A DNA stretch of 64,000 bases. Origin: an archaeon. GTDB lineage: Archaea > Undinarchaeota > Undinarchaeia > Undinarchaeales > JBDRKL01. The number at the start of each line of letters is the position of its first letter. Position 1 is the first letter of the stretch. Under the pieces are notes generated by a model that saw only the letters and a list, made by a program, of their open reading frames with translations, searched no databases and was not told the origin of the DNA. Where the stretch lies: assembly GCA_043814055.1 (NCBI GenBank), contig JBDRKL010000012.1, positions 8,596 through 72,595 on the forward strand. Direction: 5' to 3'. This document shows, one piece after another, positions 282 to 59,930 of this stretch. A program made the position numbers and the translations under genes.

Positions 282-479
282 TTGTACCTCCCCAGGTAAA
301 CAATCTCTCAGAGAGAAACTGTGTAGTTAGAGAAGTATGAGTGTGTTTATAAAGATTGTTATTCTCCGGCTGATCCAAACCCACGTAGTGGGTTGGACAA
401 CTCACAAACCCGCCAAAGCGGGTTGCGCAACGCACATCAGTGCGTTTGCGCTGTCGCGAGTTTGTCCCGGAGGAAGAGC

Positions 480-4249: not shown

Positions 4250-4331
4250 TATGATATGTGCCGAGCAAAGCGAGGCACACAAATTTCGCGTTAGCGAAAT
4301 TTCTTTTGGTCAAACTTTTCGTGAAAAGTTT
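4250..4331 (-). repeat. hairpin + TTGACCAAAAGAAA module (copy M1) directly after tRNA-Ala
   Basis: Minus strand: AAACTTTTCacgAAAAGTTT hairpin (4312-4331), TTGACCAAAAGAAA (rc of 4300-4313), then hairpins ATTTCGCtaacGCGAAAT and TGTGCC..GGCACA. Confidence 0.5.
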
Positions 4332-4334
4332 GAA

Positions 4335-8460: not shown

Positions 8461-8720
8461 TTAGAGTGATTAATGTAATAACCCCTTAAAATTGCTTTTC
8501 ATATGGATTAGAGACCCATACCACCCCTTCACAAACCACTTCATACCCCAAAATAATGATAATGTAATTCGTTGTGGTAGTTATAGGGGCCATCACAAGG
8601 AAAACCTGGTAGTGGCCGGAGGTTCGCCTCCGGTTGCACTCTTTCTTTTAAATTGCTGTCGCAAGCAGTGATTTAAAAGCGCACACGTTCCGCGAAGCGG
8701 AATGTGTCGTGTTTCAAGAA

Positions 8721-9798: not shown

Positions 9799-9990
9799 AG
9801 GTTTTTACCAATGTGCACCGAGATACAAAGCTTTTTTCGTCAACGTTTTTGCGAAGCAAAAAGGTTGGACTTCACACCACCGGGGCAACTTTATGTGCGC
9901 CAGGCAATGTACTTTTCTTTTGGTCAAGCTTTTCTTCGTAAAGAAAAGATTGCCGTTGAGTACACCACCGGGGCAACTTTAAGCTATAGG
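9799..9990 (-). repeat. two tandem 88-bp units, each starting with a copy of the tRNA-Glu 5' end (GCCCCGGTGGTGT)
   Basis: The exact 13-mer occurs at 9786-9798 (real tRNA), 9874-9886 and 9962-9974, a spacing of exactly 88 and 88 nt. Each unit has the tRNA 5' fragment, an A/T hairpin, TTGAC(C/G)AAAA, and a ~41-45 nt spacer. Confidence 0.8.
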
Positions 9991-29055: not shown

Positions 29056-29197
29056 AAAAAATGGCCCGGGTAGTTCATTGGCAACCTTTTTCTTTTCACA
29101 AAAGAAAAAGCTCGAACGCGCACAGCGCGTTGAGCAACTCGCTGTCGCGAGTTTGTTTGACCAAAAAGAAAACTTCGGACCGATTTGCGAAAAAAAT
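29056..29197 (+). repeat. 135-bp unit beginning with a 20-nt copy of the tRNA-His start region (pseudo 5' fragment), then a hairpin module (copy M4)
   Basis: AAAAAATGGCCCGGGTAGTT occurs at 29056-29075 and again at 29191-29210, where it is the real tRNA start. After the first copy comes CATTGGCAACC + CTTTTTCTTTTcacAAAAGAAAAAG + two GC hairpins (29110-29135, 29136-29153) + TTGACCAAAAAGAAAA (29157-). Confidence 0.8.
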
Positions 29198-29273
29198 GGC
29201 CCGGGTAGTTTAGTGGTTAGAATTGGAGACTGTGGATCTTCAGACGCGAGTTCAATTCCCGCCCTGGGCCCCA
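29198..29273 (+). tRNA. tRNA-His (anticodon GUG) with genome-encoded G-1, C73 and CCA
   Basis: G(-1)-GCCCGGG-TA-GTTTAGTGGTTAGAAT-T-GGAGA-CTGTGGA-TCTTC-AGAC-GCGAG-TTCAATT-CCCGC-CCTGGGC-C-CCA. One A.C mismatch in the T stem. Confidence 0.85.
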
Positions 29274-37567: not shown

Positions 37568-37663
37568 ACAAAGCTTTAAAAGACCAGAGTATTAATTTGT
37601 TTCTATGAGACACACACTAAGAAATTGGTTTTGCGTGTTCATCAACATCGGAGGCCGATGTTG

Positions 37664-38140
37664 ATGATTTCAAAAGCGGTTTTTCTCAAACTGAAGCAGG
37701 ACCAGAAAGAGCGCGTGCTCGCAGCGCTTTTTGAGGCAAAGTTCAAGAGCTTCAGCATTTTGAAGGAGAGCGTTGTTATTGATGTTCCAGCCGGCTACAG
37801 CGTTCGCGTTGCGGCTGTGCTTCAGTGCGAGGAGCAGGACGAAATAGTCAAGAGAATTTTCGTTGTTATGGAAGAGTTCAACGACTTCCTGACCACAAAG
37901 GACATTAATGAGATTTACACCCACGTGGACGAGCTTGCCAAGACCGGCGAGTTTGTTCCGGAGCGGGATGATTTCTGGGTTGTGACGAACGAGAAGTGGA
38001 CCTACGAAGCGTATGAATACGCGCGCGGCAAGGTTGCACTAATGGACGCGGACGCGGTTATTGAGGGCATTGAAAAATACTACGACAAGTCGCGAGAGCT
38101 ACGAGATGCTGTGAGGCACTTCGGGCTTGTAAAGGAATAA
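37664..38140 (+). CDS. hypothetical protein
   Basis: GGAGG at 37650-37654 favours the ATG at 37664 (9-nt spacing) over 37658 or the track start at 37625. No recognisable motif. Confidence 0.5.
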   Translation: MISKAVFLKLKQDQKERVLAALFEAKFKSFSILKESVVIDVPAGYSVRVAAVLQCEEQDEIVKRIFVVMEEFNDFLTTKDINEIYTHVDELAKTGEFVPERDDFWVVTNEKWTYEAYEYARGKVALMDADAVIEGIEKYYDKSRELRDAVRHFGLVKE

Positions 38141-40481: not shown

Positions 40482-40562
40482 GAGCGTTAGCGAAGCTCCG
40501 AATCGCTCTGCGATTCGTTTTTTGGTCAAGCTTTTTTCACAAATATAACCAATAAAAAGGTT
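40482..40562 (-). repeat. hairpin + CTTGACCAAAAA module (copy M6), no downstream gene on its strand
   Basis: Minus strand: AACCTTTTTattggttatatttgtgAAAAAAG-CTTGACCAAAAAAC + GAATCGCagaGCGATTC + GAGCttcgctaacGCTC. Confidence 0.55.
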
Positions 40563-40669
40563 GTCTCAGATCGCCCATCACTCATCACCTTATCAGATCG
40601 ATGTCGGATCTTCATTGACAGCTTATGTTAATAAATAAACTAATATAAATAGTGTTTTAAGTTGCGGTT

Positions 40670-58247: not shown

Positions 58248-58897
58248 ATAAGAAATTTGACCAAATAAGATACATTGGAAAAGACGTTGCAACCGAGAAC
58301 ATTGTTCCAGGCAGCCGGGTATATGGTGAGAAGATTGAGAAGAAGGCTGGGGTTGAATTCAGGCTCTGGGACCCGTACCGCTCAAAGATGGCTGCAGCGC
58401 TCAGGCAGGGCGTCAAGACTTTCCCATTTAAGGAAGATTCAAAAGTTCTTTATCTCGGGGCTGGGAATGGAACCACGGTTTCGCACATTGCAGATGTTTG
58501 CAAACACGGTTTTGTTTACTCAGTTGAGTTCTCACCAAGAGCTGTGACTGACTTGATGATGGTTGCTGATGAGAGGAAAAACATAATTCCAATTCTGGCG
58601 AATGCGAAATTCCCAGAGAGATATGCAGAGAAGGTGCCGCAGGTTGATATTCTTTATGAGGATGTTGCGCAAAAGGGGCAGGTTGACATTCTGAAAGTGA
58701 ATGCGGACAAGTTCCTGAAGCAGGATGGGTATTTGTTTTTGATGGTTAAAGCAAGGTCAATTGATGTTACAAAGGAGCCAAAGTATGTGTTTGAAGTTGT
58801 GGCGAATGAATTGATGGAGAATTACAAAATTTTAGAACGCATTAAGCTTGACCCGTACGAGAAGGACCATATGTGCATTGTGATGCAGAAGAAATGA
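58244..58897 (+). CDS. flpA: fibrillarin-like rRNA/tRNA 2'-O-methyltransferase
   Basis: 217 aa with the SAM motif VLYLGAGNGTTVSHIAD. Confidence 0.92.
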   Translation: MNKKFDQIRYIGKDVATENIVPGSRVYGEKIEKKAGVEFRLWDPYRSKMAAALRQGVKTFPFKEDSKVLYLGAGNGTTVSHIADVCKHGFVYSVEFSPRAVTDLMMVADERKNIIPILANAKFPERYAEKVPQVDILYEDVAQKGQVDILKVNADKFLKQDGYLFLMVKARSIDVTKEPKYVFEVVANELMENYKILERIKLDPYEKDHMCIVMQKK

Positions 58898-58902
58898 TAC
58901 AA

Positions 58903-59012
58903 CCTTTTTCCGCGAAGGCGCGCAAAAAGCTCAAACACACAAAGTGTGTTGAGCAACACGCTGTCGCGTGTTTGCTTGACCAAAAAAATTCGCTTCGCTC
59001 GAAAGGTAGAAT
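58903..59012 (+). repeat. hairpin module (copy M7): CCTTTTT..AAAAAG hairpin, two covarying GC hairpins, then CTTGACCAAAAAAA
   Basis: AACCTTTTTCCGCGAAGGCGCGCAAAAAG + GCTCAAACACACaaaGTGTGTTGAGC (58929-58954) + AACACGCtgtcGCGTGTT (58955-58972) + TGCTTGACCAAAAAAA. TTGACC lies 37 nt before the ATG at 59013. Confidence 0.65.
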
Positions 59013-59930
59013 ATGATAAGAGAAGAACTGCTCAATAAGGTCTCGCAAACCCTGCGCGAGGCAGGCTACGAAGTTGCGCTCCAGTGCACGCCAAGCTGTT
59101 TTGACATACTCGCCCGCAGTGGGCACATTCTGCTCGTGAAAGTTTTGACAAATGTTGACTCGCTCTATGAGGAGCAGGCCGAGGATTTGAAAAGGATTGC
59201 GGATGTTCTGGACGCTTCGCCGCTGCTCGTTGGCGGCACTGCGCGGGGCGAGATGATGAAGGAGAGCACGATGTATGAGAGGCACGGGATTCCTGCTGTT
59301 TCGTTTGACACTTTTGCCGAGACCATAGTTGATAAAAGATTGCCTTTTGTTTACGCGAAGAAGGGCGGGTTCTACGCGCACATCAACGCGGACTTTTTGA
59401 AGAAGTTGCGGGAGAAGAAAGACCTTTCTTTGAATGATTTGGCGCGGGAAGCCGGGGTTTCAAAAGCAACGATTCAGAATTATGAGAAGGGTGAGGGCGC
59501 TGAGGTTGACAATATCTTCCGCCTGCAGGAAGCGCTGGGCGACTTGGTTCTGGATCCCATTGACTTATTTGACTTTGAGGAGAAACCTATAGAGGTTCAG
59601 CCGCGGACTGTCTACGAGCGCGAAATTCACGCGCAGCTTGGCGATATAGGTTTTAAAACAACTGCGGTTACAAAGGCGGCGTTTAGCATTGTTGGAAAGC
59701 ACAAGGATGATATTCTGCTCACTGGCTTGAGGAAGGAGTCAATTGAGAAAAAAGCGCAGGACATCCACGGGGCTTCAATGGCGCTTGAGCAGCACGGGAT
59801 GTTCGTTGTGAACAAGGCGGTGCAGAAAAGCGTTTCAGGAGTTCCTGTTCTTGAAAGGAAAGAGCTTGACAAGGTTGTTACATCAAGGGAATTACTTAAA
59901 ATACTGAAAGAACTAGAGGAGGAACAATGA
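59013..59930 (+). CDS. putative HTH (cro/C1-type) transcriptional regulator, COG1395-like
   Basis: 305 aa with a central HTH, KDLSLNDLAREAGVSKATIQNYEKG. The architecture is typical of the conserved archaeal regulator family. Confidence 0.6.
   Translation: MIREELLNKVSQTLREAGYEVALQCTPSCFDILARSGHILLVKVLTNVDSLYEEQAEDLKRIADVLDASPLLVGGTARGEMMKESTMYERHGIPAVSFDTFAETIVDKRLPFVYAKKGGFYAHINADFLKKLREKKDLSLNDLAREAGVSKATIQNYEKGEGAEVDNIFRLQEALGDLVLDPIDLFDFEEKPIEVQPRTVYEREIHAQLGDIGFKTTAVTKAAFSIVGKHKDDILLTGLRKESIEKKAQDIHGASMALEQHGMFVVNKAVQKSVSGVPVLERKELDKVVTSRELLKILKELEEEQ

Follow-up and report, generated by a model that had tools for sequence, protein, structure and literature searches.

The double hairpin (DH) described here is probably a lineage-specific palindromic DNA module of the REPIN/BIME kind or of the kind of the Rickettsia palindromic elements (RPEs), belonging to the protein-less hairpin repeat cassettes of an Undinarchaeota-like DPANN archaeon. 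The genome carrying it (980 kb, 14 contigs, 82% complete) is covered to roughly 92% of its ~1 Mb by crude ORF calls, and the cassettes populate its non-coding DNA and a few coding sites. Homologues of one protein encoded in it carry the label Candidatus Undinarchaeales. Three of the loci, copies A and B and a third copy at 404-451, lie within the window, by which the whole 64-kb (64,000-nt) stretch of DNA under analysis is meant. A DNA role of the structure, or one neutral to strand, is more likely than that of a dedicated structured RNA. A palindromic DNA repeat fits better than an RNA gene because the stems covary by Watson-Crick pairs only, both strands fold equally well, orientation is indifferent, the boundaries are sharp, copies are nested in other cassettes and found in ORFs, an empty site exists and the element is restricted to its lineage.

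The first-pass annotation had described two copies of a 44-nt double hairpin, at 29110-29153 and 58929-58972, that differ almost only by compensatory base pairs. Both sequences sit exactly at these positions and DNA folding gave the two-hairpin structure that had been drawn for each of them, with energies of -19.2 kcal/mol for copy A and -16.5 kcal/mol for copy B (z = -4.3 and -4.5; 0 of 200 shuffles as stable). When 29110-29167 was aligned to 58929-58986, a block running into the TTGACCAAAAA box, 9 differences were found in 58 nt. Six of them form three compensatory pairs, two G-C to A-T in hairpin 1 and one T-A to A-T in hairpin 2, and the remaining three affect the bulge (G/A), one loop base and one linker base (T/C). 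A hand estimate gives ~1.5e-5 for the probability of six differences in the stems falling into three pairs that are all still complementary. The positions of these and the other features are collected in Table 1.

Table 1. Positions of the double hairpins, the cassettes that host them and the neighbouring repeats. R1 is the covariance model of the family.
Feature	Position	Strand	Remarks
DH copy A	29110..29156	+	R1 67.9 bits plus strand, 48.9 bits minus strand
Copy A hairpin 1	29110-29135	+	foot GCTC/GAGC, bulged G, stem AACGCGC, loop ACA
Copy A hairpin 2	29136-29153	+	stem AACTCGC, loop TGTC; tail TGT 29154-29156
T-module hosting copy A	29082..29167	+	CAACCTTTTT, variable inner hairpin, AAAAAGCT, DH, then TTGACCAAAAA
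Left member of 20-nt duplication, AAAAAATGGCCCGGGTAGTT	29056..29075	+	tRNA-His leader and first ~13 nt; brackets cassette A
Right member of 20-nt duplication	29191..29210	+	start of functional, intact tRNA-His (29199-29273)
DH copy B	58929..58975	+	R1 67.2 bits plus strand, 58.7 bits minus strand
Copy B hairpin 1	58929-58954	+	stem AACACAC, loop AAA
Copy B hairpin 2	58955-58972	+	stem AACACGC, loop TGTC; tail TGC 58973-58975
T-module hosting copy B	58900..58986	+	with spacer to 59012, a 115-nt insertion from fibrillarin stop to HTH-regulator start
AGAAATGATA, left member of duplicated gene junction	58890..58899	+	carries fibrillarin stop codon (58895-58897)
AGAATATGATA, right member of duplicated junction	59008..59018	+	carries ATG of downstream gene; HTH-regulator start 59013
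Third DH copy (GCGC-A-AACGCAC...GCGC-AACCCGC...TGT)	404..451	-	R1 63.8 bits minus strand, 45.7 bits plus strand
17-mer CGCTGTCGCGAGTTTGT	449..465	+	identical to loop, 3' arm and tail of copy A hairpin 2
Extra single hairpin of 'AAC...GTT' type (CCAACCCACtacGTGGGTTTGG)	375..396	-	just after third DH; weak partial R1 match, 19 bits
tRNA-Gly(GCC) and tRNA-Met, cassette in intron	C4:126247-126427 and C12:152935-153119		outside window
ctagcgtgtCAACTTCgctaGAAGTTG module	C13:17377-17412, C8:32523-32558, C8:36236-36261		outside window

A search for hairpins of the form AAC-NNNN-loop-NNNN-GTT revealed further double hairpins, and 14 copies were aligned as a family seed (A1) with the consensus GCKC-R-AAYNNRC-(A-rich loop)-GYNNRTT-GMGC-AACNCRC-(T-rich loop)-GYGNGTT-T-GY. 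Across the genome R1 matches 17 loci on eight contigs, with E values down to 8.6e-13. The third copy in the window lies ~200 nt beyond the 3' end of the 23S rRNA. A 17-nt fragment of copy A, CGCTGTCGCGAGTTTGT, had been seen to recur close to it; the repeat is exact, and 4 matches at <=3 mismatches were found against 0.12 expected. On the minus strand this fragment reads as a truncated single hairpin unit (AACTCGC-gaca-GCG) joined to the third DH. Repetition was likewise found for the TTGACCAAAAA box, with 10 matches at <=1 mismatch against 3.1 expected. A 'mini version' of the hairpin, TTGCtgtcGCAA, had been reported as well; it is actually positioned at 8663-8674, has a mere 4-bp stem and is undetected by R1, so its status as a version of the DH is not supported. 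Similarity among the copies ends at the DH edges and BLAST showed that the flanks match other loci independently. With E values reaching 1e-12 over loci on eight contigs, the excess of the 17-mer and the unique flanks, similarity arising by chance or as an assembly artefact can practically be dismissed.

In the 14 seed copies, 99.6% of the 252 stem cells are paired, the exceptions to Watson-Crick pairing being one G-U and one mismatch (A-C), and 8 of 18 pairs show a change on both sides. The covariation score was 0.42 against 0.12 in shuffles, of which 0 of 500 reached the observed value, and slid controls gave <=0.10. Non-compensatory changes at the same rate as compensatory ones would have spoken against selection on the structure; pairwise comparison gave 339 double-sided and 24 one-sided stem differences. 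The maintenance of structure that had been read from the compensatory pattern of two copies is thus supported by the pairing in 14 copies, by covariation and by the pairwise counts. The hairpin-1 stem AATTCGC is the same in five copies that have five different loops, so that the stems appear constrained while the loops drift. The stable DNA mini-hairpin GCGAAGC was not over-represented.

These counts must be read with some care since all copies come from one genome, so that they are not independent events, and they could also be inflated by the swapping of hairpins. Because a small pool of hairpin 'alleles' recurs in both positions and both orientations, the differences between A and B may in part reflect the exchange of whole hairpins and not double mutation in place. 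Within the four copies hosted by T-modules, the cassettes described below, the stem centres are more variable than some loops, a pattern that simple purifying selection explains less well than allele shuffling. Avoidance of the same allele by hairpins 1 and 2 of one DH, which would make a long palindrome, was considered and set aside: the two differ in 14 of 14 copies but P = 0.09 under random assortment.

Pairing could even be kept by hairpin-templated correction, an established mutational process at quasi-palindromes, instead of by functional selection. Template switching at the quasi-palindrome, or intrastrand repair, would copy one arm from the other, and each change would be erased or automatically made 'compensatory'. 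The near absence of one-sided intermediates, the single G-U and the stem centres, more variable than some unpaired positions, would all agree with such a by-product of mutation. However, the copies in an ELP3-like ORF and in a 358-aa ORF have lost their pairing, which argues that correction is not automatic everywhere, and constraint beyond mere identity of arms is suggested by the conservation of the AAC...GTT feet, of the bulge and of the loop type (RACA / TGTY). It is rather improbable that the pairing arose in this way.

Each DH is 44-47 nt long and has the form X-R-[AAYNNRC loop GYNNRTT]-X'-[AACNCRC loop GYGNGTT]-T-X, in which one bulged hairpin unit is present twice, in inverted orientation and with a common 4-nt foot X'. 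Read on the opposite strand, hairpin-2 alleles are identical to hairpin-1 alleles found elsewhere in the family; AACCCGC-tgtc-GCGGGTT of one copy, for instance, becomes the AACCCGC-gaca-GCGGGTT of another. The central 4-mer (GAGC, GCGC, GTGC, GCAC or GTAC) complements the 5' foot (GCTC, GCGC, GCAC, GTGC or GTAC) and largely the 3' flank too, and covaries with both, leaving no fixed flanking tetranucleotide. Because the DH is quasi-palindromic, the same two hairpins are formed from either DNA strand or from an RNA read either way. With R1, 15 of the 17 loci, including every strong locus, score on both strands at a 2-nt offset, and the opposite strands fold alike as DNA (-19.2 vs -19.5 kcal/mol for A, -16.5 vs -16.8 kcal/mol for B). 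An inverted doublet of a bulged unit with a common foot is therefore of REPIN/BIME layout. The two adjacent 7+7 palindromes with their conserved outer AAC/GTT bases, and the central GTTGCGCAAC that is itself palindromic in six copies, could alternatively be taken for paired operators that a dimeric regulator recognises in double-stranded DNA. This is very unlikely given that the inner four half-site positions vary freely yet always covary with their partner, as predicted by intrastrand pairing and not by protein read-out, and that copies are found in introns, in ORFs and behind genes, not at promoters.

The locations of the copies bear on whether the structure acts in RNA. Several must be transcribed or are placed where transcripts end: one copy lies inside the 193-nt intron of tRNA-Trp and one in the 23S trailer, one comes directly after the fibrillarin stop, and others are ahead of tRNA-His, tRNA-Glu and tRNA-Thr. 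Further copies are found downstream of tRNA-Phe and in the spacers that separate protein genes. A hairpin pair in a 3'-UTR, spacer or intron might block exonucleases, aid termination or processing, or bind a protein, and REP elements also act as mRNA stabilisers. The high stability of the hairpins (z = -4 to -5) and their covariation would suit such a functional RNA element. Since some copies are certainly transcribed, as in the tRNA-Trp intron, an RNA-level role such as that of a 3'-end protecting hairpin working in either orientation has to be entertained, though it seems unlikely. Only one G-U occurs in the 252 stem cells and the sole A-C mismatch corresponds to a G-U in the opposite strand, which leaves no strand asymmetry. 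Both strands score and fold equally, and relative to the neighbouring genes ~7 copies are sense and ~7 antisense. In copies A and B the DH is preceded by a T5 run, the usual archaeal termination signal. Further points against an RNA element are the copies within ORFs, the lack of a match to any Rfam family, and the absence of the DH from every relative searched, which speaks against a conserved function.

The copies in coding sequence resemble in-frame insertions. An MbhL-like hydrogenase subunit has an N-terminal extension of 34 residues in which an intact DH is found. Orthologues of this gene were sought within the order for an empty-site test and none were found, so the solved P. furiosus MbhL was used as the reference; its residue 9 aligns to residue 43 of the MbhL-like protein. 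Two decayed copies are also in frame, one as a 16-residue segment of the ELP3-like protein and another in a linker of the 358-aa ORF, and here the pairing is lost through A-C, G-T and other mismatches. In-frame insertion, as known from RPEs, is thus seen in three proteins.

Copies A and B are each nested in a larger terminal-hairpin cassette, the T-module, with the order CAACCTTTTT, inner hairpin, AAAAAGC and then TTGACCAAAAA. A regular expression found 35 T-modules genome-wide, 27 without an insert, 4 with a DH and 2 with another double hairpin, the inserts lying at one internal point. The insertion point of the DH is fixed between AAAAAGC and TTGACC. The second double hairpin (TCGGACGC-aca-GCGTCCGA + CCAACGCGC-ttc-GCGCGTCTGG), at C4:112600-112686 and C12:3599-3678, is unrelated to the DH. 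The internal junction of the T-module looks like an insertion hot spot because this unrelated element uses the same point in two T-modules. Of 16 other genomes in the phylum, 5 contain the T-module pattern and a reversed control gave no matches; the T-module is older than the DH.

The flanks of both cassettes are consistent with insertion. Cassette A is bracketed by a 20-nt duplication of the start of tRNA-His, while the 115-nt insert of copy B is bracketed by AGAAATGATA and AGAATATGATA, which match with one 1-nt indel. The site of copy B is empty in the nearest relatives (L100, L099), where the gap between the fibrillarin and HTH genes is 0-1 nt and the orthologues are 74% and 65% identical, and in three genomes of another family (f5) the two genes overlap by ATGA. 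An exact look-up of the fibrillarin protein gave no record. A clear target-site duplication around the DH itself was not found, as its flanks share at most GCT...GCT.

The T-module itself was seen in several other settings. The introns of tRNA-Gly(GCC) (106 nt) and tRNA-Met (109 nt) contain a complete CAACCTTTTT...TTGACCAAAA cassette from the 37/38 splice position. Since these introns start with it, the T-module that follows tRNA 3' ends is used within introns as well, its T5 run notwithstanding. At 9800-9990 (-), two truncated starts of tRNA-Glu(UUC) (GCCCCGGTGGTGT) lie upstream of the intact gene and each is followed by a T-module. In these read-through T-modules and in the copy in the 16S-23S spacer (4304-4332) the T-run is CTTTTC (T4) and not T5, which may indicate that termination is selected against at sites where transcription has to go on. 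A T-module also lies directly after a box C/D sRNA-like gene (aATGAAGA ... CTGA ... TGATGA ... CTGA) at 40540-40650 (-), which has an TTTATATT box ~30 nt upstream and gave no Rfam call at the gathering score. Two possible functions of the T-module were rejected. Its 3' box does not behave as an archaeal promoter at fixed distance, as TTGACC lies 17 to >150 nt from the next start and the canonical TATA TTTATATT occurs at other genes. A tRNA-like minihelix, with an ACCA tail and RNase P making the tRNA 3' end, is unsupported, the spacing from CCA to CAACC being -2 to +3 nt.

The core of the T-module, an exact 17-mer AAAAAGCTTGACCAAAA mostly accompanied by the complementary 5' arm CAAGCTTTT, was also present in ~20 families of viral contigs in IMG/VR with a GC content of 0.23-0.46 (contigs L108, L112, L113, L121, L123, L125-L127 and L133; L107, L110 and L115). 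In a bin labelled as a giant-virus MAG it forms tandem arrays, and contig L108 encodes ERF and YqaJ recombination proteins. These viral cores may be a widely shared element or may have arisen by convergence on a palindrome combined with a TTGACC box. Other small repeats were observed in the same genome. A 26-36-nt module (…ctagcgtgtCAACTTCgctaGAAGTTG) that immediately precedes the 5' ends of tRNA-Pro, tRNA-Thr and tRNA-Leu, with 100% identity among them, may be a common leader or a promoter-proximal hairpin. Two near-identical hairpins ttcatcAACATCGGAGG(C)CGATGTTGATGa, each after gagacacaca..., at ~37600-37680 (+) of the window and at C12:95635, look like another small conserved element.

R1 gave no match in 40 relatives and none in the orthologous loci. 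Pattern scans returned 23 single matches in unrelated bacteria among GTDB representatives, 18 stretches in JGI metagenomes (best model score 23 bits) and 6 stretches in IMG/VR (best score 21.5 bits), all at chance level. Rfam 15 gave no match at the gathering score, and permissive searches stayed at chance level (E >= 0.4). The DH is thus restricted to its lineage and was seen in one genome among the collections searched. A six-frame search of the whole genome (82% complete) for Y1/RAYT (PF01797) returned nothing at E <= 1, whereas it had matches in 10 of 14 control genomes, and TnpB, reverse transcriptase (RVT) and tyrosine integrase were all below the cut-off in the same 82%-complete genome. 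A tyrosine-integrase-like fragment with one in-frame TGA was noted at C4:139485-139730, with a non-significant score of 14 bits; its distances to tRNA-Phe and to a DH copy are ~400 nt and ~550 nt.

Among known systems, REPINs appear by analogy to be the closest to the DH. The 17 R1 loci comprise many extragenic palindromic units arranged as inverted hairpin doublets, as in REPINs. In common with REP, BIME and REPIN elements, the DH is a short, extragenic, imperfect palindrome in inverted doublets, with dozens of copies, lineage-specific and capable of alternative folds. A REPIN consists of two inverted REP sequences, for which folding in single-stranded DNA or mRNA is predicted and compensatory changes are common (PMC3116915), and REP/REPIN sequences are able to fold alternatively as a 'clover' or as a long hairpin (Bertels and Rainey 2011, PMC3116915). 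The DH differs from REP-RAYT systems in that no RAYT (Y1 transposase) and no GTAG-type 5' tetranucleotide were found. It differs from REPINs in its archaeal host, in units that overlap by a common 4-nt foot where REPINs have a spacer, in its nesting in other hairpin cassettes and in its presence in ORFs.

The RPEs are small palindromic repeats of a reduced genome, ~100-150 bp long and with a bacterial host, which are found between genes and in frame within protein genes, where they add a peptide segment. The DH is likewise an intergenic and in-frame palindromic repeat in a reduced genome, though its sequence is unrelated, its host is an archaeon and it is a strict doublet of 18-26-nt hairpins. 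Fungal and sponge mitochondria contain double-hairpin and other repetitive hairpin-forming elements that are gene-less, intergenic and sometimes within rRNA or protein genes; their copy number differs among close species, no enzyme is assigned and mobility via DNA or via RNA has been debated (PMC2800124 and papers cited there). These elements share with the DH the two hairpins, the lack of genes, the scattered distribution and the lack of an assigned enzyme, but they belong to organelle genomes and have no sequence relation to it, and neither nesting in a terminal-hairpin cassette nor a common foot has been reported for them.

Prokaryotic MITEs resemble the DH in being non-autonomous, short, structured, multi-copy and mainly intergenic. 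Unlike them the DH has no parent insertion sequence, no distinct terminal inverted repeats and no defined target-site duplication, in keeping with the enzyme searches and flanks described above. Two further comparisons were rejected. The archaeal bulge-helix-bulge motif has two 3-nt bulges and a 4-bp helix, whereas inspection of the DH showed a single 1-nt bulge per hairpin. For integron attC sites or the subterminal hairpins of IS200/IS605, the tyrosine recombinase or Y1 transposase was lacking over the cut-off.

If the DH is a palindromic DNA repeat, it would be copied as DNA into new places, preferably beside or within other hairpin modules, one target being the fixed AAAAAGC/TTGACC point of the terminal-hairpin cassette. 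Strict pairing may be kept because the hairpins would have to form while copying or repair leaves the DNA single-stranded, or to fold whichever strand is transcribed. We infer that the spread would proceed by replication- or repair-linked template switching between hairpin cassettes in preference to cut-and-paste transposition, since no transposase of the families searched was found and the flanking duplications vary, from 3 to 20 nt here. A bolder suggestion, offered as a tentative one with the odds against it, is that the DH and its sibling hairpins are cis-acting substrates of a transposase-free movement of DNA in DPANN archaea. The agent would then be a single-strand-DNA enzyme other than RAYT, or replication-linked templated insertion. 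The bulged 'AAC...GTT' hairpins would direct where cassettes are copied, namely to gene ends, into tRNA introns and into stems of other cassettes, and the duplications of variable length would keep the target genes intact.

Covariation alone would misflag the DH as a structured-RNA gene, and the test of symmetry, in which both strands score and G-U pairs are lacking, is a useful filter. Dozens of selfish-looking repeats are unexpected for reduced DPANN genomes. The DH is a clean, strongly covarying addition to the modular hairpin cassettes of this Undinarchaeota lineage, whose hairpins are kept as hairpins on both strands, nest at fixed points and are able to enter both coding regions and the introns of tRNAs. 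Should the mobilising mechanism prove new, it would bear on the origin and spread of archaeal tRNA introns and spacer elements.
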